Of a stretch of DNA of 64,000 nucleotides, positions 6,127 to 58,133 are shown piece after piece (the stretch's first letter is position 1; the number at the start of each line of letters is the position of its first letter). The position numbers and the translations under genes are program-made. Under the pieces are notes generated by a model. The model searched no databases, was not told the origin of the DNA, and saw nothing but the letters and a program-made list of their open reading frames with translations. Origin of the DNA: Yuukianura sp. NJ FZ-2021 (lineage: Eukaryota). The DNA lies in assembly GCA_046563655.1 (NCBI GenBank), contig CM102285.1, positions 3,348,001 to 3,412,000 of the forward strand, written 5' to 3'.

Positions 6127-6630
6127 TTACTTCTTTTTTCCTACGTTTTTCGCAAACTCTCCATAGATGTTTCCTTCTGGCGAGAACACACAGAGCAATT
6201 CAAAAAAAAATTGTTTAGGTTTTTCTTCTTCACGGAAGATTATACATCCCACATACTCGGACTCTTTCCACACGAGTTGCGTGAAATCTAATGCAGATTC
6301 GTAAAATCCCGGTTTTTTGAAGTTGTAATATTTGCTATCAGCTTCCCAGGCGTTCACAGCATGCTGAAGTAATACTTCCTCATACTGCGTTGCATTGTTG
6401 TCTTCGAAAAAAATTTTGCCACCGTCCGAACGGCCGCTAGCGGGAATTTCCAATTGTTCCAAGGCTTCTTGAGCGTAATATTCTACAGCGTCGTTCCAAG
6501 TGAGGGGTTTAGCTCCATACTTCTTTCGAACTTTGTTCATCGCCCTAACCCCAAAGCTCTTGTAATCTGAAAAAACAGGAGTAATGGACGCCAGAACTCC
6601 AAACACCAAAAACCAGGTCAACAGCACCAT
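6127..6630 (-). CDS. Secreted CAP superfamily (SCP/PR-1/GAPR-1/Pry-like) protein, intronless
   Basis: Signal peptide, then N-x-x-R...PLTWN, AVNAW, YNFKKPGF, FTQLVWK...VGC and C-x-x-x-P-x-GN...F-x-x-NV CAP motifs. Confidence 0.9.
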   Translation of the reverse strand: MVLLTWFLVFGVLASITPVFSDYKSFGVRAMNKVRKKYGAKPLTWNDAVEYYAQEALEQLEIPASGRSDGGKIFFEDNNATQYEEVLLQHAVNAWEADSKYYNFKKPGFYESALDFTQLVWKESEYVGCIIFREEEKPKQFFFELLCVFSPEGNIYGEFAKNVGKKK

Positions 6631-7228
6631 TTTCTGATAAAAATAGTGAAAAACAACTTAAATTTCGGTTTTCGAAATAAAAGCGAGAACGACTGCAAGT
6701 TTTAAAAACCGGATGGAGGAACAGAGTCGTATCCGAGGTTGTTTAAATCTAACCCTTGCTTGTTTTTTACAAGGTTATGCCATAACTACTGTCTAAAGCA
6801 AATTGTTTTGAATTTTTTTCTGCGATTTGTTGGCCTTGCACCATGTAAAGTAAATGTGATTGGTCCAAAACTTGTTTCTTCAAGTTTTTTTTTCATCCGA
6901 GTTATGGCATAACCTGTTAGTTTGTACAAATTTCCGCTATAGCAATCTTGGTCGTATCAAATAGTTTTTTGCAGCAAAAGACTAAAACGACCTTTAGAAA
7001 AACTCATTAGTTTTCAACAAAAAAAGAAGTAATAGTTCGGTTTTTGGATAGAAAATAGAATGAAATGTAAGACAAAAAAAATTAGGATTCTTACACTTTT
7101 TGGTCTAACTTTCAAAAAAAAATTTTTTGGTAGTTTGAATTTTGAGATGGAAAAACTCGCGAATTTATAATAAAGGCCTCGGGGGTTTCGAAATCAAAAA
7201 ATCAGAACCAACCACAGTTTAAAAGCAA

Positions 7229-12292: not shown

Positions 12293-13347
12293 ATGGCTAA
12301 ATTTCTACCTCTCTTATTCGCAGCGGTGTTTGCGGTTGCTGGGGTTAGCGGGCACGGTCGCTTCATGAAACCAGTTAGCCGTAGCTCTGTCTGGAGAGAT
12401 CCAGAATTTGCTGACCAAAATCCCATTCCAAATTATGATGACAATCAATTATACTGCGGAGGTATCCATCAAGTAGATGATCCCGGAACCAACTGCGGTG
12501 TTTGCGGAGATCCGATAGCTCAGGCACAACCCAGAGAAAACGAAAGAGGAGGCAAATATGCCCAGGGAATTATCACTGGAACTTATTCTGCCGGTCAAGT
12601 AAGTAGCCAAGTGCATGTCAAAATTATTTAACTTTTAAAGTATCAAAGTTCGTAAACAAAAAAATGTTTTTTCTACACTAGGTTGTCCAATAACTCGATG
12701 TTTTTTATTTTGTTAAAAAATTTGAACAACCTTTTTCCTATATTAATAATTTTCATGTAAAGCAATTGGAATTGGGGTAAAATGGGGGGGTGGGATTATT
12801 TGAAGCAAAATTTTAGTCATTGGACAACCTGTTGTACGAAATACAATTCGGTTGCCAAGGAACCTTGCCTTGTAAAGTATATACTTTAGTAAATTCTTTT
12901 CTTCCAGACAATCGATGTAGAAGTTGAGCTCACTACGGCCCATTTGGGAAATATGGAATTCAGACTTTGCACAGATCCGCTTGATGAGAGCCAAGACTGT
13001 TTTAACCAGCATGTCCTTCAACTTGAAACCGGTGGAACGAAATTGCCTGTTGACCATGGCACAGGTTGGTACAAAAGTCGAGTCAGGCTGCCCGCTGGGG
13101 TGACTTGCAACCCTTGCGTCATCCAATGGAACTACAGAGGAGGAAACCAATGGGGAGACTGCGGAAATGGTGAATATGACATGGGGTATGTTGCTACAAG
13201 TGGTTTAATTAGCAGTTTTTAATCATCTTCCTATTCTTTACTTATATGATAATATATTATGTTTTACTGTAAACTTTTATTTTGCGTCAATCTAGATGCG
13301 GACCCCAAGAAACCTTCCGTGGATGCAGTGACGTCGTCATCTCTTAA
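12293..13347 (+). CDS. Secreted lytic polysaccharide monooxygenase, AA15-type (3 exons)
   Basis: Signal peptide ending VSG leaves His1 (HGRFMKPVSRSSVWR). Then YDDNQLYCGG, CGVCGD, second His in TTAHLG, CVIQWNY, GNQWGDC and CGPQETFRGCSDV*. Confidence 0.93.
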
Positions 13348-24506: not shown

Positions 24507-26074
24507 TCATTTCGGATAGCATTTTGCTGAGTTGCCTGGTAATTCCGGAGGTGGTGGTCGCGGCAGATTGAGTCCCACCTTGACACTGTCGTAGATTAGC
24601 CATTGAGCTGCGGCTAAACTCCCGATCATTAGAATTCTCGGTCCAAGGCCTTTCCAAAGACCTCCAAAGCCAATTTCTCTGTAGACTGATAACATGGTAG
24701 CTCCAGGTTTTTGCAGTTTACTGACCATGGTATCCGCGGGGTGCGATACGATAGCACAAAATACCCCAGCAGTGTATCCAGCAGCGAATGTCACCATCAA
24801 TTGGTGTGATTTTGTCAAAGTGTCTCGAGGGATTTTTACAACATTTCTGTAAATACAGTCCAAAGTTAATCATTCCTTATTTACTTAAACGTCCCCAATG
24901 CAATCTTTGTTTTGAATGTCTTCCTTACTTGTAGAGAAATTCCAGTGTGCGTTCAAATGTAGCGAATTTGACCATTGTGTAAGGGATTTGTCTTCCCCAG
25001 ATCGGAACAAGAGACTTGTAGAATCCACCGATCCCTTCGTTTCTCATGATCGTCGGAATGGCTTGACGAAGGGACAACGGAAACCCGGGAACTGTTTGAG
25101 TTCGCACCTTAAGATTTATACCATTTTCAGAAATTGGGTTTAAAGGACATACTTTGAGGTTAAATTTGCAAAGAAGTCAGCTGTTACCTTAATACTTTCG
25201 AAGGGACTCAAGGGAATGTCAGCCAAGATTTCAGCTGAGGCCGCTGCTGCCAAGTATATCATTGTCCGGTGGTTGTAGAATGTTTCTGGACTTGACAAAG
25301 CTGCGAACTTGATTTTGAAGTACTCGTATAGGCCAAAACGCACTGCTCCCTGGACAAGAATACGAAATAAAAAAAAACCATAATGAATAACCAGACAAAA
25401 ACAAAGTACAGTTTTTAAAATTCCAATGGTATCGAGTAATCGTACCTGAGCTCCATATCCGAGCTAAAAATCAAATAAATATTTTGAATTAAAAACCAAT
25501 TCAGAGTAATCTGATTCTGTGTTTATGAAGTTGAGTAAACAAGCAATTAGTAATAAGAATTTACCGCTGTAGCGCCCCAGCCCCGGAAGAGACCTTTGAC
25601 CCTATCCTCCTTGAGTGAAATCTACCCCAAAGGCACATTAATTAATTAAGGACGTGTAAGGTGAGGTGTAAGGTGTAAGGGAACAGTAGACGATTTCGAC
25701 AATGGGTTCCAGGGGCTTAGTATGCCAACCTTGAATGCATCAACAAGGCCTGTGAACTTCGTAGGATTCGCCTGAATCCGACATTTAATGAGATCCAAGG
25801 GCAGAATTGCAAAATGGGTGGATGCGCAGCATAAGGAGCCACCCATAGCACAGATAGTGTAATACATCGGAGACCCAAGACTCACACCCCCTAAAATCAA
25901 GAAAAATTGTATCAGAAGTTTGGTTAGTTGACCTTGACTTGACTATTACTCAACTACTTGACTAAGTGAATGTTATTGACATCTAAGGGGGTAACCTGTG
26001 GCAGAGAGTGGAACTTTGCTGGATTCTGGGGCCGTATGAGTTGGCATTCCCAACTGATTCTGAATTGTCGCCAT
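24507..26074 (-). CDS. Mitochondrial phosphate carrier-like (SLC25A3 family), divergent
   Basis: PLDLIKCRIQ, GYGAQGAVRFGLYEYFK, PFESIKVRTQT, WGRQIPYTMVKF, HPADTMVSKL and QWLIYDSVKV. Includes an 18-nt exon. Confidence 0.92.
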
Positions 26075-31754: not shown

Positions 31755-32612
31755 ATGTTTCTGTCAATTATTCGAAGGAACATATCATATGTTCAAGGAC
31801 AATACAGAAACAAGACGAGGGAATATTTTTATTTCATTGACCACCAAGGAATGGTAAGTTTGTTTACAATATTTACGCGGGGCTTTCAAGTTATAAAACC
31901 GCGTGTAACTTATACCAAAAGAAATATTGGTTGGCTTAAGGTTTCATGACCGTCGTTGTAACCGTACGCCGCGTACGGTGTACCAAAACCAAAACCACCC
32001 AAAATATTGGATTGACACTTTGTTTTTTTTCTGTATCTGCAGCTATTCATGGATGACGCTAGAATTAAAAATTTTACATCCTGCTTCAAGGGTAATTAAC
32101 TGGCTTACGATTATTAGTTAAAATCACCAAGTTAATGAATTAAATTATGAATATAATGATACTCATCATGTTTTACAGAACAGAAATTTTTGCATTTTTT
32201 CTTGACGAGGGTCAAACGAAACGAATCTGGATTCTACGAAAACGAATTTCCCTACATTTCTCCTTGTGGCCGTGAACTGAATTACATTCGTTGTGATGAC
32301 CTTCCCATCGTTTTCACAAAGGTCGAACGACCAACTAAAGAGCTGATTTGGGGTCATGTCAATGAACTACGAATTCCCTTTGAACCCTCCAAAATCTACA
32401 TGAGTCCAGAGGGCAGAATCTACCATCCATACAACAAGTACCCATTCGTGGGTCTCATCGCTAGTAAAGTCGGAATAGAAATCAGCAACTACTTTGGATT
32501 TGCAAATAATCGTCCAGTGTCGTTCAAATGGGAAGGTCAAACTTATGAACTGACGAACGAATGTGAAGACTTGCTGAAAAAGAATAGATTACATGCTGTG
32601 AAAGATTACTGA
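31755..32612 (+). CDS. UPF0598/C8orf82-like protein
   Basis: YVQGQ...REYFYFIDHQGM|LFMDDARIKNFTSCFK, FPYISPCGRELNYIRCDDLPIVF, GRIYHP. Confidence 0.9.
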
Positions 32613-32815
32613 ACATAATTTAGTTTAGATGCTACACAAACAACCTAATAATTGTGAAAATTAACGTCCCTGTCGAGACGGGATTTATTTAGTCACTGTA
32701 TTTGCGATTTTTCCCTTTTTGTTTTTAGTAAAGTTAAAATGTTATCACAATTTTCAAGGGCGAAGCAACTGTGCTGGTGGATTGTGTTCTACCTCTAAAT
32801 TAATTAATTTGTTTG

Positions 32816-34722
32816 TTACTTCAAGAACGACGTACCGATTGAAATCGTTGGAAGATTAGGGGGATATGGAAAGAGAGAACTTTGTCCGTGAAGCCTATGC
32901 ACTGGCTTCAGAGCTTTGGCACGAATTTGATCATGGAGTTTTGGGTCGTATGGTGAAAACTTTATCCAATGAGGATCATTATCGAACTCTCGACTTGGAG
33001 GATCGTAAATGCGTGTAACGCTCAACTCCGCTTCCTTTTGAGCTCTAATCGCAAATTCGCTCGGAGTGTTAAGAAACCTGTGCAGAAAACAATTAAAAAT
33101 AATGCTGTGATAATCCAGAATAAGAAAATAAGATGTTATTCCTTACATGTCATGCGCTGCTTTATTGAACGTGCTCATTTCTACTCTATGAAAAGCCGCC
33201 TTGACGGCTCGCAACAACTGCCAGACATGATTATTCGCTTTGCTCCAAGATTTGAAGTGGCGTCGTATGTCAAAGACACCTCGTAAAGGATGAACACAAG
33301 GATGATATACAGGAGGTTGAAATGCAATAGTCTGTAATAGAAAAATTGCGGAATTACAATCATTGACAATGGTTGAATATATACAATTAGAATTAACATG
33401 ATTATGCTCACAGGAACGGTGTTATTTGTGGGAAATCCTTCTTGAAAATGTATAACGAATCGAAACACTCCTCCCAGGTATGGACCTTGATGTACGAACA
33501 TCACTCCAAACCAAACTGTAAGAGCATAAAAGTGTGATTAAATCTAGACAACGAACACATACAATCATACATCTTTGAGACAAAGTTACGTTCAACTCCA
33601 GTCTACAACACATAGTCATGTTGATTTACCGTAGGAGCTCTGGTATGATGGGATGACATAGATACCGCCAAGCTTCTCAGTCCTTGTGACAAGACAGCTA
33701 AAACAAATTTTGGAAAACGTCAAATCAAATTACTATTCTATACAAAAAAAATTCGATTACACTTTCTTAGTACTTTCTTTTGGCGTACAGTTTAGGTACA
33801 CTTACTATTCCGCAGTGATATAAGATTCTCTGAATATATTCTCTATTTGCGTTTGAGCCAAGAATTCTGGAACTTTGGATTTGTTATCTGTCGATGGAAC
33901 CCGTATCGCTGACCCTGGTGACCCACTCTGAGACTCTTCCGTCTCAATCACCGAACGTGGAGTGGACAATGTACCGTATTTCCTCGACTACAAGACGCAC
34001 TCGTGTATAAGACGCACCAACAAATTCTCAAAAATACATCAATAGCGCGAAAGTCTAAAGTTTAAAGTTGACAACTCACATTTCACACTGGTTTCATAAC
34101 TTTGCGGTCAAGTTAATTTCTACATCAGTATAACTTTTAAGTTTTTAACGATGGATGTGACACCGAAGGTGACTCGCAGTCGCAAATTACAGGGATCCTG
34201 GATTTTTCTGCATTTTCTTCGGGTGGTACGGAAATTTCATGAAAAAAATCAATTTATCAATTCAGTGCAGAACGTCCGTAGGTCAGCCACAAAAGTTGGG
34301 ATTTTTCGCGCTTGTGGGGCTGAAAAGAAGTGTCTGGATTCAATTTCCCAAAAAAAAAAAACATGTTCAACAATGTTCAATGTGAAAGGAGTGGAGATTT
34401 GATGGAAAATTGGGTGAACAATGTTTTCAACAAACGCAAGTCGACATTTTTTAAAAAACCCTTTAAGAAGAGGCAGACACAGCTACCCAAAAGTATCAAA
34501 AAGCGTCTGACGACAATTTGCTGGGGGCTCTATCTGATGGATTTGATGAATTCACACTAGATTAAAACAGTTTAATGTGGAATCTAGTACGTTTTCACAC
34601 AATTCCTACTCTTGATTAAAGAAAATCTTTAGTTTTTAGGAAAATACGAATTTTTTTTTTCAAAATCTTCCGAAATTTCTTAGATAAGACGCGTCTTGTA
34701 GTCGAGGAAATACGGTACTCAT
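32816..34722 (-). CDS. AKTIP: AKT-interacting protein / Fused toes / Crossbronx (UEV-type E2 variant); exon 1 interrupted by a MITE
   Basis: ESYITAEY...[45 protein letters not shown]...DPHWIKFSPYD. ATG at 34722 is in frame once the MITE and one TA are removed. Confidence 0.85.
33974..34715. mobile_element. 742-bp TA-flanked MITE (Tc1/mariner-pogo-type ends)
   Basis: Perfect 25-bp TIR CCGTATTTCCTCGACTACAAGACGC. TA duplication at 33972-33973 and 34716-34717. Confidence 0.9.
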
Positions 34723-35588
34723 TCTCAGCAGCGTTGTCCTTCGTCAGCTCATTGATTTGATTAACTCAAATTCAATTAACTAAAAGCTCGATAACTCACT
34801 CTCGACCCGCCCCCAATGATTGGGGCCCAATCATTAAATACACTTAAGTAATTTACGCCTCCAATCCAACAAGTAGTTGTCCGAGCTCGGATTTTGTTAA
34901 CTGAATGTAAACTTAATGGTGAGTTGACGATGAAGGAAGAGATCTCACAAAACTGATTTAATCTTAACTTTCTCATCAATTTAGTGTTATCATTAATTAC
35001 GCGCTTCGCCCTTCGCCCCCTCGATTGAAGGTTGCACAAACAACGCCGAGTTGCAAATTCCCCAAATTCTTTGCAAATTGAAAATTGCAAATGCAAACCT
35101 AGTTAAATTTTTTTGTACTTTTCAAACTAAACACGTGGTTAAAAATTTAAGGGGAAATGCCAATGGCACACGGTTGAAATTGCAAAATTGTGAAAAATGA
35201 CAGTCTTGACATTGCCATTGCAATTGCATAATTTCAAATTGAAAATTAACCTAAAATGTTTTGTCAATTACAACAGGTCAAATGTCGATCTCTGTAACTT
35301 AACATAAACATTAGCGATAACTATTTCCTGCTATTTTAACTATGAGTAAGTGTTTACTACGAATTTTCATGGTGAAGTTTGAATCATTCTAGATGTTAGA
35401 CACCATCTAGAGAATACTTTTATTTGACCTATATTTTTATAGCATTAGCAACGATGTTTGCCGCTTTGGCCGTTTTGGCATTTTGTAAGTTTATCAGGGT
35501 TTTGCAATTTCTGCTTAAGGTGTGCGAACACCCTGGAAACGGGGGGTCAAAATGCGGCTGTAACTCATCAAATGGAAAATGGTCTGGA

Positions 35589-35821
35589 TCAGCGTAGGAA
35601 GGTCGTACAATGACCAACAATATATCAAACTTTAGGAAAAGACTTGATCTAGTACCCTGTCGGAGAAAATTACAAAATTTTAGTTCTGTCTATGTAAATA
35701 TGGAGGTGGAATGTTTGAGTCAATTTTTTTCACAGTTAGAACTAAAATTGTGTAATTTTCTCCGACAGGGTACTAGATCAAGTCTTTTCCTAAAGTTTGA
35801 TATACGACCTTCGTACGCTGA
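35589..35821. repeat. Foldback/MITE-like long inverted repeat
   Basis: ~65-bp near-perfect arms at 35621-35687 and 35738-35804, plus outer arms tcagcgtaggaaggtcgta / tacgaccttcgtacgctga. Confidence 0.85.
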
Positions 35822-36457
35822 GCCACGCCATTTTTCAATTTCAATGTCACTGTCTCGGAAAAGTTATTTTAAAACCCAGACGACGGCAACCGAACTTGTG
35901 TCAGTAGTTTGTTTGTTTCAAAGTGCATACTTTTTTTGATCATCTTTCCACTGATCCTTTTTCACCACTCACGAGGGTGTTTCTTTTTGTCGATGTCTGC
36001 ATGTTTTACTAACTGCACAAGCTCCGTTATCGTGGTTACTAAATTTAACGATTATTGTTTATTAGACGCATAACACACGTCCTTAAGTAATTCCTCATCC
36101 TCACATCTTCACCATCAACGTGTACCGTACGTAAACTTGATTCTTGGGATTTTGTTCAGAATTTGTTTATTTTCTGTCGTCGTGAAATCGTTTCAGTGTT
36201 ACAGTGATTGACCCACAGGCTTCATTTACAGCAACCAGCGACTCAGCATCTCATTTTGCATTTGGAAATCAGCGTTATAAGTCGTCTTACTACCAACCAA
36301 ACCAGTAAGTAAGTCTCAGTTAGAAAAAGTGTTTTCGTATTCCGTCAAGTCCGTGTTCGATTCGATTGATGATTGATTGATTCTAAACCGCTTTCTAACC
36401 TTTAAGGCAACCCAAACCGGTGAAGGACCATAAATCGAATCAGCATAACAAAGCAAC

Positions 36458-40619: not shown

Positions 40620-43352
40620 TTAGACGCCGTTGTAAGAACTGCCATTCTTCTTCGCCGGTACACCACTTGGTGGCAGCAGCCTCTGCGTTTCTGTACCTTC
40701 CCCTTCCGAATCCGAATCTTTGTCCATTGCCATAAATCCTTGCTGAATTTCGTCTAGTGTTTTGCCCTTTGTTTCTGGCACGAAAAACAAAATGTAGATG
40801 AGACCTATGAAGCAGAATGCGGCAAACAGTAGAAACGTTCCGTCTGTTCCCATTGAATTCGTCATGTTTCCAAAGAACTTGACCAGTAAGAAAGAAATTG
40901 ACCATTTAACACAAGTCAGGAGACAGGACGCCAGACCTGTAAAGACAAGAAACGCATGAGGTCAAAGGTCAGAACGGCACGTGAATGTTTTGAGTCACAA
41001 ACTTCTGACTCTAAGCTAAAGTGCGCGTTAACTTTAAAGTTTGGAATTGCGAACTACGAGATTTGTGAAATTGTACTATTTTGTTGGGTTTTAGATTAGG
41101 ATTAATCTCGAATTTTTACTCGTAGTTCTACATTTAATGTTGAACTTCATGTAAAAATAGAGCTGACCTTTGACCTGCGGTGGAACTAGTTCGCCCAAAA
41201 GGAGGTACACGATTGGTCCAAGTCCGACGGAGTACGCAAATACAAATATCAGGAGACTTGTCAATGGAAGCCAACCAAGTTCCTTGTAAGGTTGAACTTC
41301 ACTGTGCACTTTTAGGTAGAAGTAGAGTGACAGAGCACAGAGGGAAATCACCATGAACAGTTCCGATAGAATCAAAAATATCTTCCGGCCGAACCGATCT
41401 ACTAAAATGGCAGCTCCAATAGAAGCCAACTGCAGACAAGAAGTAGTTTTTAAGAAATTGTTTTGGTTTAAGAACATGCAATGCCGCCAGTATGTTAATC
41501 CCTGTCTTACCACCTGGAAAATACCGACGTAGATGGCAGCAACGTACTCGTCGATATTGGATCCAGCGGCTTGAAAAATATCCACGGTGTAGAACAGTAC
41601 TGGATCAATTCCAGAAATGACTTGGAGAACAAACAGCACCAGGATTACCGTAAATGGTCTCAGAATGGCGGGACCCAAAAAGTCTCTCCAATTTGCGGAT
41701 TCTTCGCGACTTTTTTGACTCGTTCGACGTAGCTGCATTAAAAAAATAGGGGTTAATAAAAAAAAGCCATTTCAAAAACGATAAACAAAAGTTCGAGTGT
41801 TTTAAGCTGCTTGAAGAACGATTTTTCAAAATTGACGAAAAAGCGCAAAATTTGAATTAAATGTTTACTTACGGCTGCCAATTCATTCTCGACTTGCATG
41901 GCCGATGACGCACCGCGTAGGCGCATGAGTGAACGTCTCGCTCCGGCATCATCTCCCTTGTCAACCAAGTATATCGGTGACTCTGGGACGAACATCATCA
42001 TGGCAAAGATGATGGCCGGTACGATTGCACTGAGCAGCGTGTAGGTTCGCCATGGCATGAAGCATCCGAGGACATAACTGTAACATTACCATTAGCGATT
42101 TGCCAGACCAAACATTTGAAATTCAAAATTGTGACATTTTTAAGCTGATTAGTCCGGCGCATATGCCAGTAAGTAGGGGATTAATTGTCGCAATGTTAAT
42201 CACTATGTCTTACTTACATCAAAAGTTGACCTAGAGTAATGGCCAAGTCGAATCCAGCACCGAGTAAACCACGGATTTTGACATCTGATACTTCTGCAAT
42301 GAACAGCGGTGCGATTACGACAAATCCACCTCCGCAGAATCCTGGACAAAAAAAAATATGGGATGGGTTACTGTATGCTGGATTAAAACTTAATTCTGTT
42401 AAGTAAGTTATGAAAATCTAAGTTCTTCCTATGAATTTAAAGTAATTAGAGTAATAATGAGTGTAATTACTATGAATTTAAAGTAATTATAGTAGTTTGA
42501 GCGTAATTATTTGTAATTACTTGTAATTACTTGAAATTACTTGAGAGTGGAGACAATTATTTGGAACTTACCGGTAGTAAAACGGCCGGCGTTAATCATA
42601 TTCACTGTCGTAGCAAAATATNNNNNNNNNNNNNNNNNNNNNNNNNNNNNNNNNNNNNNNNNNNNNNNNNNNNNNNNNNNNNNNNNNNNNNNNNNNNNNN
42701 NNNNNNNNNNNNNNNNNNNNNATATGAGAAGCCATCCAACAAAAAACGGAACTGTAAATAGAAGCATGGAATTCCGCCGTCCAATTTTTTCTAATAAAAT
42801 TCCAGCGATTGGAGTAGAAATGACGGCAGCAAGCTAAACGTATTGCAAGAGTTAGTAAATTTTAGTTTCAAGATTCTGCGCATGCTCAGGTACGTTTCAT
42901 TACCGTAACAATAGATCCGATCCATGATTCTTCAGAATCTGTTATCGTAAAATTTGGATCTTTTCGGAGATCGGGTAGTGCTGCAAGTATTTACACAAAA
43001 AATTCAGAATTGAACTTAAAAAGCGACATAATCGTGTACGGTGCGCATGCGCCTTACCAACAGCAGACCAGCATAGAACGATTCCTAGGGCCAACGCTCC
43101 CATATTTGCTGAAAAATTTAAACATTGGCGTGTTTTTACCGCAATACGAAATAGCCGGTTTTTTTTTAAAAGTTTTTTATGCTTACCGGCTATACCGGAG
43201 AAATACTGCACAGATTTGCTAGCACTGAAAAGTAACTCTTCACTATGTCCAGGTTCATTTAAACTTTCAACTCGTTTTCTGGCTCTGATGTATACATCGC
43301 TAAACGATTTTTTACGCGTCCGCTGCGGTCGAGACGCTTGCTCGCCAGCCAT
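40620..43352 (-). CDS. Facilitated trehalose transporter Tret1-like MFS sugar transporter
   Basis: PESP, SGIDPVLFY, DRFGRK, GLGP...GE and PETKGKTL motifs. Contains an assembly gap. Confidence 0.92.
42622..42721. other. Assembly gap (100 N) inside a Tret1-like exon
   Basis: Run of N. The flanks read GWLLI / YFATT, so little or no coding sequence appears to be missing. Confidence 0.98.
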
Positions 43353-49759: not shown

Positions 49760-51363
49760 TTAATTGTGTCCAATAAACGTAGGGATGGACTGTGGGTTAC
49801 GGAAGTAATTATCCGGGTCATACTTCTGTTTGACATGTACAAGTTTATGAAGGTTACTACCGTAATACCGCTTCAAATAATCCGTCAGACTTCCATCAGC
49901 ATAATTTTGGTACGATTCCTTGTGTTTGAAAACAGTTTTTCCAAGGTCATAAATTTCCTCCACCCAAATGTCGGCAGCAGTTTCCGTTCGATTCTGAGGA
50001 TTAGCTACTTGGTTCAAAACGGCTACAATGTCATACCTTCCCTTTCGATGAACAAAAGCAGTTTCATGAACTTTGACATCGTTTGTGGCGCCTCCTAACG
50101 GGTGAAAATATAAGGTCAGAGTGGGAGGCACTTTTTGTAAAAGTGTTAGCATCCGTGACAGGTCAAGGTCACTGGCAACCTTTTGAACAAAAAGGATTTG
50201 ACCGTCAAATATTCTTTTCCAGACGACATTCGACTGAGATTCGACAGATCTTGAGCTGCCAATACACTTGGCTTCTGAATGTACTCACGAGATACAAAAA
50301 CAATAAAATCTGGATACGAATACCATGCACGGGAATTGAATTCTGGTGGCGGGAATGACTTTAGAATGGCGTCTAACTGGTGAGACCTGCCCTCCAAGAC
50401 TTCAAAAGTTCCCAAAATGGTTCCATTGGACACAACTAACTTTCCAGTAAGTGTTCTGGCAGCGTGGATTGAAAATTGTTGCCAAGCTTTATAAACTTGG
50501 ACGAAACTGTTCAAGTTCCATTTCAAAACGAGGACAAAAATTACAGGTGGGGCTGGGAAGACTTTGAATGTTAAGGAAGTGACGACCCCAAACGACGCAG
50601 CTCCCCCACCGCGCAGCGCCCAGAACAAGTCAGAGTTAACGTCTTTGTTGACAGTAAGTAGTTGACCGTCAGCAGTGACAATGCGCAGGCTCAAAATCAA
50701 GTCGCATGTGAAACCGCGCATGCGTGACAAGTAGCTGCGACCACCACCAGTCGCGAATCCCGTGATTCCTAGCTGTGGACATGACGGAATTTGAAACGTC
50801 ACTCGCCCAATGTTAAATAAAGTCATAGCAATCCGACCGAGCTAGTATAATTAGAAAATTTGTTTTGAAATTTTATGATGACAGACTTTTTTCAAAATTC
50901 AAAAAATATCGGAATTTAAAGTTTAACTTTGACTAACCGTGGCTCCCCCGCCAACCGTTGCCGTTGATTTTGAGCTGTCTAGTGTTACGGCATTCAAATA
51001 CTGGACGTCAATTACCACTGAACGTCTGTTTCCAAAAGAATATTTGGGAAAAGAGTGACCTCCTGCCAGCGTCACCAACCTGACATTGTACTTTCGTCCA
51101 CAATTTACCGTCACAACGACGTCCATTTCCGTCCTCACTAAAATGAAAGCCTTTGGACGGATTTCTTTTGGCTTTTGTTGCCATTGGTAGTTCAGCGTTT
51201 CGTACTGCATAGAATTGCTTCTACGCGGAACAATATTTTCTGGGCGAAAGTCTCTTTCCAGAAGACAGTTTTTGAAATTTGAAAATCTTCCTGCTTGCAG
51301 TCCATCAACCGCTAAGTTCAGCAGTACGTAAGTACAAACGCCAAGTTTTACAAAAGCCTGCAT
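49760..51363 (-). CDS. Secreted BBE/AA7-like FAD-linked oxidoreductase, copy 1; 1-nt frameshift at ~50190 (pseudogene or sequencing error)
   Basis: Signal peptide, AGGHS, SCPQLG, WALRGGG, C-terminal YYGSN...KYDPDNYFRNPQSIP. Adding one T to the T5 run (plus-strand A at 50189-50193) restores KSFFVQKVASDLDLSRML. Confidence 0.85.
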
Positions 51364-51606
51364 TTTTTGCAACAGTAAAAGTATTACTGGTGGGTAAAAA
51401 AGTGCTCCACTTACACAAAAGGCTATAAAAATTAATTCCTGAATTCTATAAAGATTTTATTGTATTTTCACCTGAATCTGTCAATTTTTAACTAGAAGAA
51501 TTTTGAACCTAGTACGTCACAGCCTTTTTTGATTAATAAAAGTTTCAAAATTTCAGCCAAACGCGATAAAAACTTTTACATGAAGAACAAAATTTAATGA
51601 CAAACA

Positions 51607-53195
51607 TTAAATTTTTGTAGGAATTGATTGAGGGTTATTAAAGTAATTGTCGGGGTCAAATTTTTGTTTGACCTGAACCAGTCTCGGCAGATTACTTCCG
51701 TAGTATCTTTTCAAATGGTGTGCAAGGTCTCCATCTGCATAATTTTGGTAAGACTCTTGGTGATTGAAAACTTTTTTTGAAAGTTCAAAAATTTCAGTTA
51801 GCCAAACATCAGCAGCAGTTTCCGATGGATTCCGAGGATTAGCTATGTTTGTGATCCCAGCAATAGCGTATCTTCCTTTTCGATGAACGTAGGCCGTTTC
51901 ATGAACTTTGACATCATTAATAGCACCACCGTACGGATGAAAGAATAAAGTTACTGTTGGAGGCACTTTCAACAGAAGGTGCAGTAGGCGGGAGAGGTCA
52001 TCGTGACCCGCCAGTTTTTGAACATAAAAGGATTTCAAGCCTTCATACTGTTTTATAGCCGAATGACGAGTAACATTCAACAAATCCTGTGGTCCAAATC
52101 CATTTGGCATGTAAATGTATTCTTCAGCCGCGAAAATCAAAAAATCTGGATAAGAATAGGGCGCGCGAGATTTGAATTCTGGTGGCGGGAACGTTTTTTG
52201 AATTAGTTCCAACTCGAATCCAGTTCCAGTCAAGTCTAGAAAAGTGCCCAAAATTGTTCCATTGGCAATATTTAGTTTTCCAGAAATTGTTCTTGGTGCG
52301 TGAAGTGCAAAATTTTGCCAAGCTTCAAAAACTTTTACGAAATTGGACAAGTTCCATTTCAAAATTTCAACAAAAATTATCGGCGGCGCTGGAACGGTTT
52401 TGAAAGTTAAGGAAGTTACGATTCCGAATGAGGAAGCTCCGCCTCCGCGCAAGGCCCAATAGAGGTCAGAGTTCACATCTTTGCTGACTGCACGGAGTTG
52501 TCCATCGGCAGTGACAATGCGCAAGCTCAGAATGAAGTCACTTGTGAGACCGTAAGTTCGGGACAAGTACGTATTGCCACCTCCTGTTGCCAATCCGACA
52601 ATACCTACGCTTTGACAATTTGGAATTTCAAATGTTACTCGTCCTCTATTCCACAAGGTCATCACAATTGGCCCATTCTGGAAATTTCAAAACTCATTTT
52701 TAAAAATTTTATGAAATTCTAACTCCGAAGCTCTTTTGTTTCTAAAAATTGAATTGCATAAAATTTTGAAATTACCAAAGCCCCAGCGCCGATGGTTGCC
52801 GTTTGTCCTAAACTGTTCAGCGTGATGTCATTTAGTAGCTGAAGGTCAATGACCACAGAATGTTCATCTCCAAACGAGTATTTTTCATTGGAGTGACCTC
52901 CACCCAGAGCCACCATTGACACGTTGAAGTGTCGTCCACAAAGGACGGAAGCCACGACGTCCTTTTCCGTCCTTACCAAAATGAAAGCCAAAGGACGAAT
53001 GTTTTTCCGTCTTTGCTGCCATTGGTAGTTTAAATCGTTGTACTGTTTGGAATTGCTTCTGCGCACAATATTTCCCGAACCGACGCCGCTTTCCAGGAGA
53101 CAGTTTTTGAAACTTGAAAAAACTTCGGCACGAAGTCCACCGAACGTCAAAAAAAGTACAAAACTCAAAATGACAAATACTGCAACAGCTTTCAT
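51607..53195 (-). CDS. Secreted BBE/AA7-like FAD-linked oxidoreductase, copy 2 (2 exons)
   Basis: GGGHS, NCQSVG, WALRGGG, YQNY, YYGSNLPRL...FDPDNYF. Confidence 0.93.
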
Positions 53196-53500
53196 TTCGA
53201 CTTTTACAAAAAGAATGAAGTTTAGAAAGTTTTGCACACACAAAAAATTTTACATTACAGTATACGTGAATTTTTGATTCAAGTGACAAGAAAGTTTAAT
53301 GACACTTGAGCTGAATCAATCAATTTCAATATACAGGGCTTCCAATCGTAAGTTTTTTTCTATAATTTGGCTCAAATATTAAATAAAATTTTGGAAAAAA
53401 AAATCTTTTACACTCCTACGAAATTTAAATTCTCAACCAATACAATTAAGTCAAACGTTAGGCTAGTTAGGATATGCCACTAATACCGTAAGGTCAAAGG

Positions 53501-55389
53501 TCAAATTCTAGTGGGAATTGACTGTGGATTGTGAAAGTAGTTGTCTGGATCATACTTTTTCTTGATACGAACTAAACGTTGAAGGTTACTTCCATAGTAT
53601 CTCTCCAAGTAATAATCATTGCTCAACTGTGCATCGACATAATTTTGATACGACTCTTTTTGATCAAAAATTTTGGCACCAAGTTCAAAAAACTTTTGTT
53701 CCCAAAAATAAATATTGCTGGATTCCAATTTGTTTTTAGGAATGTTAGAATACTTGATTGCCGCAAGAGCAAGTCTACCGCTTCGATGTACAAATGCGGT
53801 GTCGTGAATGTCAATGTCGTTAATGGCTCCACCAAAAGCTCCAAATGAAATATGTAAATCATTTGGCATTTGACGTATGAATGTCGCCAGCAACAAAATG
53901 TCTCCGTCACTTGCAATTTTTTGAACAAAAAATGACTTTTCAATTTGATACGTCTGGGGAGCCGAAGTCCGATCGACGGTTAGCAATTCTTGCGGGTCAA
54001 TCGTCGCTCCATTTTTGCGACGCTTGAGGTCATCTCCGGCAATAGTAATCAAGTAGTCAGGAAAATTCAAATAATCCCGCGAAATAGATGTTGCCACAGG
54101 GAAAGAGTTCATAACTTTTTCAAAATTTGAATCCGTTCCTGTAGAATCTACAAAAAGTATGAAGAATCTATTATTGTAAATATTAAGTTTTGCGGTAAGC
54201 GTTCTTGGTCCATCGGTTGTAAAGGTTTGCCAAGATTTGAAAACGAGCGGGAACAAATCAAGAATCCAAGACACCGTGGCAGTAAAAAACTTTGGAGGTG
54301 CTGGAACGAGTTTCATAGTTAATGACGTTATGACTCCAAATGACGCCGCTCCACCGCCACGTAGAGCCCAGTAGAGATCGGAGTTGACGTCTTGGTTGAC
54401 GACTAAGCTTCGTCCGTCAGCAGTGACAATGCGCATGCTCTGAATATAGTCTGTCGTTAATCCGTACTGACGTGACGTAAATCCGTAACCACCTCCTGTA
54501 GCTAATCCAGAAATTCCGACAGTTGGACACGTTCCGACTGGAAAAAACGATCGAGCGCTGTTCCACAAAGTCATCATTACCGGACCGGCCTAAAAAAATG
54601 TAAAGTGTTTTGGTCGTATATTAGATCAACTCCGTATTAATCAAAAACAATTTCGACCAATGAGATTTGTGTTAACTAGAACATTTTATCAACTAGTATT
54701 GGATCAACCACCTAATTGTATCAACAGGTCAACCGAACGTGACCTTGCTCCACCTGTTCGTGCAAATGTAAATTGGATCAAAATTACAATTTACAATTGC
54801 ATCAAATGTTTCCGAGTAATTCTTTTTGATGATGCAATTTGGAATGGATCGTAATCGATTGAAGTTGAACTATTCCAATTGACGATTGAAATAGCCTTGC
54901 TATTACAATTGTGAACTTTCGATTCAAAATTTTTTCGAATACTTTTTTGAATTTTTTTTTGAATACCAGCACTCCAGAACCGATGACCACCGATGAATTG
55001 TCAATGTCCGGAACAATTGATCTCAAATTCCGCAAATCCAGCACCACAGAATCACTGTCTCCGAAGGAATACTTTTCAAAGGAATGTCCGCCAGCTCTTG
55101 CGACGACACGTACGTCCGTCTTTTTGCCGCAGATGACTGACGTCACTACGTCATTTTCACTGGTTACGACGATGTACGCCAAAGGACGAATATTTGGTGG
55201 CTTGAGTTGCCAGTGGAAGTTGAGCTGATGGTATTTCTTAGAATTCGGACTTCTGTGCACAATCATTCCAGAAACAACGCCACGATCCAGGAGACAGCGT
55301 TTAAAAGATCCAAAATCTCCAGCACACGAACTTTGCACCATGGCAAGCAAAACTAGACAAAAAAATTTTAAATTCCGCGCCACTTCCAT
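53501..55389 (-). CDS. Secreted BBE/AA7-like FAD-linked oxidoreductase, copy 3 (2 exons)
   Basis: RAGGHS, GTCPTVG, GGGYG, WALRGGG, BBE C-terminal motif. Confidence 0.93.
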
Positions 55390-55832
55390 TTTGTTTCCAC
55401 TTCGTGAATGGAGTTAACTCAAATATTCCAGGTTGTTTTGAGGGTGGCTGGAGCCAGTTGACCTTTTGTGTAGTTTGAACTTGGAGGCATGACAGAAGAA
55501 TGGAGCTTAACCTCACAATGTAAAAAGCAGTCAATGATTTATTGGAGGAAGGGAGGTTATGTTAAAGTTAACTAAAATTAGTCACGGTTTAACATAGATA
55601 AACAAGGTGAAACCACGATTTCCGATGTGCAAATTAATTCTTACTTGAAAAACATACTAAAAACAAAAAGTAGGACGAAGTTTACACCTCAAAAGTTTCC
55701 TGGCAGACAATGTTTTTTTGCGTAATAAACTCAAAATTGTTGAGGTTTCCGAATAGTTTTAAAAAGAAACCAAAAGTAATATAAAAAGCAAAAGAAAGTT
55801 TTCAAAATTTCAAAAAGAGCGAAAAACATGGA

Positions 55833-57446
55833 TTAGCTAAACTTGACCTTTGACCTTGAGTAATTTTTGCTTTTTCTTAAAATAGGAGGGATAGATTGTG
55901 GATTGTAAAAGTAGTTATCAGGATCATATTTTCTTTTGACTTCAACCAGTCGCGGAAGGTTGCTGCCGTAGTATCTGGTCAAGTAGTTCCTCAGTTGCCC
56001 ATCGACGTAGTTTTGATACGTTTCATTTCCATCAAAAATTTTTGCGCCAAGTTCAAAATATTCGTCCAATAGAGGTTTTCCCGCCAAAACGGATGTTGTA
56101 TTTCCGTCAGCTATGTACATTCCTATAATTCCAAGAGCGAATCTTCCCGTTCGATGTACAAAGGCTGATTGGTCATTCGGTACATCATTGATGGCTCCAC
56201 CGTAGGCTTGAAATGACACGGTCATAGACTGGGGCAGCTTGAGAATTTGGTCACGGACAAGTTCAAGGTCACCTTTGCCCACCATTTTTTGAACATAGAA
56301 TGAACTTTCTATTTGGTACGACGGTGTAGTCGAATAGCGTTGAATTTGAAGTAACCCCTGCGGGTTAACAACGTTGTTCACGAGACCGTATGCAAGAATA
56401 AAATCAGGGAAAGTGAACAAGTTTTGAGTGGTTGAATTGGCGGGAGGAAACAATTTTTGAATCTGGTCGTAATTTTTGGTCGTTCCGTCAGAATCTATGA
56501 AAGAAATTGAAATCGTGCCGGCATTGATGTTCATTTTGGCAGTGACACTTCTTGGACCGTCAATGGTAAAATTTTGCCATGCTTCGTAAACTTCCTCGAA
56601 GCGCTCCAGTGGCCATGTAGGTGTGACAGCAAAGATTGCTGGAGGTGCGGGAACAATCTTCATGATGAAGGACGTGATGATTCCAAATGACGCGCCACCA
56701 CCACCGCGCAGTGCCCAATATAAATCGCTGTTGGTGGTATTGTTGACGACAAGAAGCTGTCCATTGGCTGTGACTATGCGCATGCCCACGATGTAGTCTA
56801 CTGTCAAACCGTATTGCCTTGCTTGAAATCCAAATCCACCACCAGTAGCCAGTCCAGAAATTCCTACAGTTAGGCAACTGGATACTGGAAAAAACGATTT
56901 CGCTCCATTCCATAACGTCATGATTATTGGACCAATCTGAAAAATGAGGTCAAATAGCTTTAGTAGTTAGTAGATAAGCTTGGATTGTTGAAAATTTTGA
57001 AATTTTTAGATTCAGTGTCTTACCAATGCTCCTGAACCGATGGTGGCGGTTGAGGTAGAGTTATCCAGTACGACAGAGTCCAATTTGCTTAAATCCAGAA
57101 CGACCGAGCGATTATCTCCAAACGAGTATTTCTCGAAAGAGTGACCCCCAGATCTGGGGACGACTCGTACGCCGTACTTCCTACCGCAAACGACTGCTGC
57201 AACAACGTCATCTTCATCTTTTGCTTGAAAGTACGCTAATGGATGAATGTTTGGAGGTTTCAGTTGCCAGTGAAAATTCAGGTCAGTGTATGACCTTGAG
57301 TTCCCACGAACGACGATTTTTGACGCGTCTTTTCCGCCACCTTCAACACAAGCCTGGAAAGCCTGAAAATCACTTTCCCCATTAGTTTCACCTGTAACTA
57401 CACAGACTGACGTTAGGGCAAGTAGGATTGCTCCTAGAGCGGGCAT
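55833..57446 (-). CDS. Secreted BBE/AA7-like FAD-linked oxidoreductase, copy 4 (2 exons)
   Basis: RSGGHS, SSCLTVG, WALRGGG, BBE C-terminal motif, several N-x-S/T sequons. Confidence 0.93.
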
Positions 57447-58133
57447 ATTAATTTTTAATTAATTATTAATTTTCAAACTGAAGTTAATCGTTGCGTAGAC
57501 TTGTGGTGCTGTCACCACAAAAGTTGAGACAAGAATGTGGTTGATGTGTTCACTAATCTAAATGTAAGTTCTAGAGGAATTACAAGAATGACAATGACCT
57601 CCAAGCGATACACGATTAGAAGTCTTAAGCAAGAGCAATAATCACGAGCTTTAATTAGTTTTTGACTAATGTATGCTACTTAAGTTGACCTAATCTGTTA
57701 AGTCTATTGTTGTGTCATGATCATGAAATATGTACTGCGAAGAAATTCATTCTCCAAATCCAAGGACAACAGGGTCAAAATCAAAAATATCCGTATGCAT
57801 GCGTGACCTCCAACTTGGAGGTCACGTCTAACCGTCCATAATGTTAATAGCAAGGGGATCGGAGATTAGGAGGTCCTACATGATCAAAAGGGCGTAGCAA
57901 AACCGCTGAGCTCTGCCTCCTGCTCCAATACGGGTGACGGTAAGTGTTGTGAGTAGTTCCTAGTAGAGTTCAATATAAACACTAGCCAGCTGTTTTGTCA
58001 CTAGTACTTTTAGTTTTTTTCGTGCAACCTTGTTTGAGATTATATTTTGATTAACATCAAATTATAATAATTAATTGTAGTAAAAACTATTTAGTTTGTA
58101 TTAATTCTGATAGAGTTTGCAATTGGATCCAAG

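Follow-up and report, generated by a model that had tools for sequence, protein, structure and literature searches.

DNA transposons such as Tc1 and maize Ds/dSpm were described in older reports as being spliced from mRNAs. Stowaway-type MITEs of the Tc1/mariner superfamily are characterized by a TA duplication, short perfect terminal inverted repeats (TIRs), the lack of a transposase, a length below 800 bp, multiple copies, and shorter deletion derivatives. DNA transposons with TIRs are also reported to be the main source of introners, making up approximately 82% of the classified families (PMC12130899), and introner splice sites are described as coming from the element, from the target-site duplication (TSD) or from the exon (PMC9860276). 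In one family of Aureococcus both splice sites lie inside the element and 12 bp, or four residues, are added to the product (Gozashti et al., 2022; PMC9860276), and introners have also been reported in copepods (PMC9860276). The design suggested by a sequence-only reading of the locus studied here, an element that brings both splice sites and leaves added codons, is of this already known kind.

A second system, described in C. elegans and in human cells, is SOS splicing, which cuts exonic DNA transposons from mRNA (Zhao et al., 2025; PMC12779559). According to that report, base-pairing between the inverted terminal repeats is both required and enough, and elements that are non-autonomous or have scrambled repeats are excised as well; the examples given are the C. 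elegans elements Tc1, Tc3, and Tc4 and, in human cells, reporters with Tc1/hsMar2 (PMC12779559). The resulting junctions are imprecise, seldom GU-AG, and clustered close to the ends of the repeats; in C. elegans exonic DNA transposons are removed from 90–100% of host mRNAs (PMC12779559). A host capable of it is expected to have AKAP17A, CAAP1, and RTCB. Among the papers from 2025 onward that a literature search listed, none reports SOS splicing in an arthropod, as judged by title or abstract.

The locus to be compared with these systems lies in a 64-kb window (the whole stretch of DNA that was analysed, 64,000 nt), in which an element interrupts a five-exon gene on the minus strand after codon 3, the minus-strand reading being ATG (34722–34720), AGT ACC and then the element. 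The gene model was aligned to P0001, a protein of 272 aa from a 1040-nt JGI contig that was the sole relative found by a search with exon 5, and has the following parts:

34714..34722, minus strand: start codon and codons 2–3 (M S T) of the AKTIP/crossbronx orthologue (gene model; start of P0001)
33806..33971, minus strand: remainder of coding exon 1 (gene model), which would start at 33987 under the candidate splice
33630..33697, minus strand: coding exon 2 (gene model and P0001)
33412..33515, minus strand: coding exon 3, with the start of the UEV/UBC fold and the first internal Met (gene model, profile match, P0001)
33147..33331, minus strand: coding exon 4, the UEV core (gene model, P0001 and alignment)
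32816..33077, minus strand: coding exon 5 with the stop codon (gene model, exon-5 search, P0001)

The four downstream introns are all GT-AG, with lengths of 108, 114, 80, and 69 nt, and the model of the gene without the element (the empty site) encodes 263 aa. P0001 is identical to this protein at 198 of the 263 positions (75%) and begins with MSTLSTPRSVIETEESQSGSPGS (MSTLSTPRS...), without six extra residues and with four residues of open frame upstream of its start. The alignment bears out the start codon and exon borders, and with them the element-free reading, which had been predicted to be open from the ATG and is also seen directly in the DNA contigs discussed below. When P0001 was used as a query, 23 proteins were retrieved, and those that bear a name are insect “protein crossbronx homolog” or “AKT-interacting protein” entries with 35–39% identity, all with PF00179, a domain that P0001 carries as well. 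A Pfam scan of the gene exon by exon matched only exon 3, a weak UQ_con hit with an E-value of 0.0079 that is below the curated cut-off. Judged by this homology, the gene is an AKTIP/crossbronx-type UEV gene (an inactive E2 variant) of an invertebrate, and its host is probably an arthropod. The catalytic cysteine is presumably lost, to judge by eye from the relatives' alignment and known E2 motifs.

The insertion interrupts a part of the protein in which an alignment of eight relatives is variable (the first ~8 residues), with conservation running from the RSVI..T..EE block onward. When the element is read through unspliced, the frame stops after 20 codons. The next in-frame Met, which the sequence-only reading had placed inside the conserved domain, is indeed found in exon 3, within the part that gave the UQ_con match, and no AUG internal to the element can restore the frame since a TAG stands directly upstream of 33987. 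As a separate observation, residues 1–26 (33903–33971 encoding residues 4–26) are identical in the window protein and P0001 despite the overall identity of 75%.

The features of the element are given below in the sense of the gene where an orientation applies.

33974..34715, no strand: non-autonomous DNA transposon (MITE-like), 742 bp, 36.8% GC (perfect TIRs; DNA contigs that skip the element plus one TA)
34691..34715, minus strand: 5' TIR (gene sense), 25 nt, with the candidate donor GT at 34713–34712 (sequence and inverted-repeat search)
33974..33998, minus strand: 3' TIR (gene sense), 25 nt, with the candidate acceptor AG at 33989–33988 (sequence and inverted-repeat search)
34716..34717, no strand: TA target-site duplication, upstream copy in gene sense (744-nt skip = 742 + 2, with 4 ambiguous letters)
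33972..33973, no strand: TA target-site duplication, downstream copy in gene sense (sequence and DNA contigs)
34198..34479, no strand: low-copy internal segment of the element (read depth; the element ends are at ~10x the flanks)

The inverted arms (33971–33998 and 34691–34718) are 28 nt long and 100% complementary, each made up of the 25-nt TIR, the adjoining TA, and a single palindromic base of the flank. The TIR 25-mer has exactly 2 matches in the 64-kb window, where none is expected from 100 shuffles, so that the TIR pair is far beyond chance. The GC content of the element is 36.8% compared to 38.7% for the window. At 742 bp the element is too short for a full transposase, and the Pfam scan of its sole internal ORF of at least 82 aa (34100–34399) matched no family; likewise the Rfam search of the element gave no match, and the TIR 25-mer had 0 matches in the metagenome contigs. 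A second copy was not found in the 64-kb window by blastn, which returned the element itself, its own TIRs and otherwise matches of 25 nt or less with E-values of 0.039 or higher. The terminal inverted repeats, the TA duplication, the precise empty site, and the multi-copy family are the MITE features observed, and the claim that a MITE-like element with TIRs and a TA duplication sits in codon 3 of AKTIP/crossbronx is borne out by the perfect repeats, by P0001 and by the relatives with PF00179. [quoted passage not shown]

A different foldback element is present at 35570–35840, ~850–1100 nt upstream of the AKTIP start. Its arms (35621–35698 and 35727–35804) are 78 nt long and 94% complementary with a loop of 28 nt, and are flanked by a second inverted pair of 38 nt. 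Against Rfam it gave sub-threshold matches on both strands to the plant miRNA families MIR7807 (54 bits, for a gathering score of 90) and MIR2118; rather than a miRNA gene, it probably represents a further MITE-like hairpin.

Four of the five DNA runs that match the stretch were compared, coming from two samples and two studies: X1, X2, and X5 belong to sample S1 (organism A), while X3 belongs to sample S2 (organism B, from the other study). The ends of the element stand at approximately 10 times the flank depth in all four (this depth is not a copy number), and in X1 at least 8 contigs leave the element after 34717, with the TA kept, and enter different flanks. Joints within the element skip 649 nt (34018 to 34668) and 635 nt (34036 to 34672) in X1 and X2, and 385 nt (34264 to 34650) in X5. 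The element is a member of a multi-copy family, whose other members appear to be internal-deletion derivatives, the shortest of them ~93–107 bp long.

The same four runs all contain a joint from 33970 to 34715 that skips 744 nt (33971–34714, with the ambiguous letters GTAC), i.e., the element and one TA. In X2 the contig with this empty site is 5926 nt long, has 0 differences from the window, and keeps all four real introns; the corresponding contig of X3 is 2435 nt long. RNA splicing was considered as the origin of the 744-nt skip and is ruled out, as the contigs keep the four real introns and the joint is at the TSD and not at GT/AG. The empty site, with its single TA, no excision scar, and a reading like that of the orthologue, represents the ancestral state. 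This state, found in all four runs, together with P0001, which lacks the insert, supports the earlier claim that the insertion is recent, and the insertion is polymorphic, with the precise empty site in two samples from two studies. The filled and empty alleles are identical in their flanks over ~2 kb in the contigs compared. In every run examined an intact allele is found. Since the empty allele is seen in all four runs, including runs of the sample that best matches the window, a carrier need not express the interrupted allele.

As a side observation on these runs, X5, although labelled S1 like X1 and X2, has only a diverged haplotype over 32600–35400, which differs at many single bases and, around 33737–33767, by several small deletions in the intron; it has the empty site too.

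Indirect evidence for the filled allele itself comes from X1, the one run in which contigs identical to the low-copy interior appear (34194–34384 and 34355–34612, with 0 other letters), at depths of 85.5 and 50.2, compared to 141.6 for the left flank; in X3 the depth over 34292–34479 is 0–0.6. A further reading, which we regard as very unlikely, is that the insertion is not a germline allele, but either an assembly error or an event in somatic or rare cells that the assembly has picked up. Such an origin would be in line with X2, from the same sample, running unbroken through the empty site, and with the finding that none of the pieces listed is a contig bridging flank and TIR by at least 31 letters. 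That finding holds among the pieces listed, however, and a bridging contig may exist. Against such an origin stand the perfect TSD and intact TIRs, the match of the two X1 contigs to the interior over 34194–34612 without a single other letter, and the fact that the X1 flank contigs stop right at the point of insertion, as they would at a branch between two alleles.

For RNA from the filled allele, the sequence-only reading had proposed one intron:

33988..34713, minus strand: candidate 726-nt phase-0 GT-AG intron (hypothetical; from the sequence only)

Its coordinates, minus-strand reading, and phase-0 GT..AG geometry with six added residues were all given correctly. After the candidate splice, 2 nt from the 5' end of the element and 14 nt from its 3' end would stay in the mRNA together with the second TA, a footprint of 18 nt that encodes six residues (SRKYGT) after Thr3 and is open in all three phases; the resulting model is open and 269 aa long. 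Both sites had been said to lie within the TIR and hence to be present in either orientation, which holds as GT and AG are in its perfect part. This means that the same ends and the same 18-nt footprint would result in either orientation and at any TA.

These properties make up much of the case for a spliceosomal GT-AG intron (34713–33988) as the main product, which would be an introner-like intron birth adding six residues to the protein. GT and AG are in place, the frame is kept and free of stops, the element offers both sites whichever way it inserts, its footprint stays at 18 nt and open in three phases whatever the site, and its family is multi-copy; in addition, a CTTAT that lies ~20 nt upstream of the AG could serve as branch site. 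Precedent is given by the Aureococcus introners with both sites inside and by the introners reported in copepods (PMC9860276). When the 25 bases of the TIR are shuffled with the insertion site kept, however, an in-frame and stop-free GT..AG pair within the TIR or TSD is obtained in 6403 of 20000 cases (32%). The in-frame pair is therefore no more than chance would give in about one of three such elements, and this counts against the intron-gain reading.

For a comparison of the sites themselves we assembled 14 local introns with borders fixed by homology rather than by splice consensus, namely the 4 AKTIP introns (via P0001) and 10 introns of neighbouring genes, placed by continuity of the Pfam profile coordinates. 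The neighbouring introns come from 11 ORF pairs, of which 10 were resolved and one (DUF4505) was dropped as ambiguous, and the Pfam scan covered 122 ORFs, those of at least 82 aa in a list of 203 that run from stop to stop over 70 aa or more. The set stops short of the other TH1 and Sugar_tr junctions, the upstream Mito_carr exon (25649–25942), PIG-S, and the last BBE4 junction. The BBE2 donor was picked by its position relative to the paralogues, and other candidate donors exist for this intron.

Several observations from the same part of the analysis concern the neighbouring genes. Two-exon genes that combine FAD_binding_4 and BBE (berberine-bridge-like) domains form a tandem array of four at 49763–57458 on the minus strand; their introns are at the same domain position, with lengths of 87, 377, 98, and 96 nt and differing donors. 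An assembly gap of 100 N (42622–42721) adjoins a Sugar_tr/MFS transporter gene at 40623–42085 on the minus strand. The ORF at 12893–13219 on the plus strand matches LPMO_10 with an E-value of 8.3e-08, and that at 6130–6657 on the minus strand matches the CAP/cysteine-rich secretory family with an E-value of 4e-16.

The candidate donor, ACC followed by GTATTTCC, scores 4 of 11 against the 11-nt consensus complementary to U1 (a textbook motif), while the donors of all 14 local introns score 6–8 of 11. It lacks both the G at −1 and the G at +5, a combination that none of the 14 local donors shows. Three local donors lack +5G, all of them with −1G, and one of the three, BBE2, reads GTATTC, which means that donors of the GTATT type are possible in this genome. 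No GT in the element has a donor match of 7 of 11 or better. The 17-nt acceptor tract has 9 pyrimidines compared to 9–13 in the local introns, and 5 T compared to 7–10, so it lies at or below the local range, and the length of 726 nt, compared to 69–377 nt, is twice that of the longest local intron and approximately 8 times the typical one. In the predicted fold of the pre-mRNA (z = −3.4), the full 28-bp TIR stem is present in both the MFE and the centroid structure and encloses GU and AG, so both sites would be inside a duplex.

A donor weaker than every local one, the acceptor tract, the length, the predicted duplex, and the frequency of such pairs among shuffled TIRs all count against GT-AG splicing, as does the polymorphism of the insertion, since with an intact allele present nothing requires the element to be spliced. 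We consider a GT-AG intron as the main product distinctly unlikely, and more generally this indirect evidence leans against the intron-gain reading. The wider form of the idea is that the MITE family is an animal introner at the time of intron birth, able to enter any TA in either orientation with the same 18-nt footprint, and that the AKTIP copy would be a segregating new intron; this appears highly improbable to us.

The element is like the Aureococcus introners in being DNA-transposon-like, with a TSD, both dinucleotides inside and whole codons left behind (12 bp there, 18 nt here), but those introners are many annotated and expressed introns with consistent sites, whereas here there is one genic copy with a weak donor, a polymorphic insertion, and a hypothetical intron (PMC9860276). 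With the one-site introners of Micromonas and Aureococcus it shares a MITE-like structure, TIRs and a TSD, and insertion into coding sequence; these bring one splice site, take the other from the TSD, and on splicing restore the original mRNA length, whereas both sites are in the TIR here and 18 nt would be left (PMC11282704). The MITE-derived non-canonical introns of Fritillaria borealis and the nonconventional introns of euglenids are similar in having TIRs and a TSD at their edges, with TIR pairing bringing the intron ends together (PMC11282704). Unlike the present case, where the 14 local introns are ordinary short GT-AG introns, these are described in the same source as numbering thousands, in lineages with altered or special splicing machinery (PMC11282704).

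The 28-bp stem that encloses both sites is what SOS-type removal would call for, in which the TIRs would pair in the pre-mRNA, the element would be excised near the TIR ends independently of the spliceosome, and RTCB-type ligation would give mixed junctions, some of them in frame and allowing partial rescue. By the gene model the element is exonic, and its repeats are perfect. For rescue, the product must be in frame and the region poorly conserved (PMC12779559), and the insertion is in the variable extreme N-terminus. The locus is like the SOS substrates described there in each of these respects, being an exonic non-autonomous DNA transposon with pairable repeats in a poorly conserved protein part of an animal gene (PMC12779559). 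On the other hand, SOS splicing is described there in C. elegans and human cells only, and its imprecise, rarely GU-AG junctions differ from the single junction proposed here (PMC12779559). The repeat length that is required is left undefined in PMC12779559, the Tc1 repeats being 54 nt long compared to 25–28 nt here, and the absence of an arthropod case from the titles and abstracts of the listed papers from 2025 onward also counts against this alternative. SOS-type rescue seems to us unlikely, if a credible alternative; should the RNA be rescued, SOS splicing would be at least as plausible as GT-AG splicing.

With moderate confidence we favour the reading that the insertion has produced a young allele, loss-of-function or hypomorphic, which is carried next to an intact one. 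The element, from a multi-copy and non-autonomous family targeting TA in the style of Tc1/mariner, has recently inserted at the TA in codons 2–3 and still segregates with the precise empty site. Reading straight through, the interrupted allele would end after 20 codons, with no usable AUG before the UEV domain, and its default outcome would be, as we infer for its expression, a loss-of-function or strongly hypomorphic allele. The sequence-only reading had itself named a null allele as the alternative to intron gain, and it is this alternative that is better supported at present. Against the null default it can be said that GT and AG exist and that the footprint is in frame. Six extra residues might also be tolerated, the extreme N-terminus being variable in distant relatives, and the removal of exonic transposons in C. 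elegans (PMC12779559) means that a null outcome is not a given in animals. Whichever reading applies, the insertion is not fixed, so in the evolutionary sense there is no intron gain yet.

As it stands, the locus is an ordinary young transposon insertion in a coding exon. If the element were spliced, the locus would show something rarely met with, an animal's spliceosomal intron at a stage when it is still polymorphic, and the inserted and empty alleles on ~2 kb of identical flanks would make a clean natural experiment on intron birth. The practical value of the locus is that of a ready-made test case, in which a null allele, a single GT-AG junction, and heterogeneous SOS-type junctions may be told apart.
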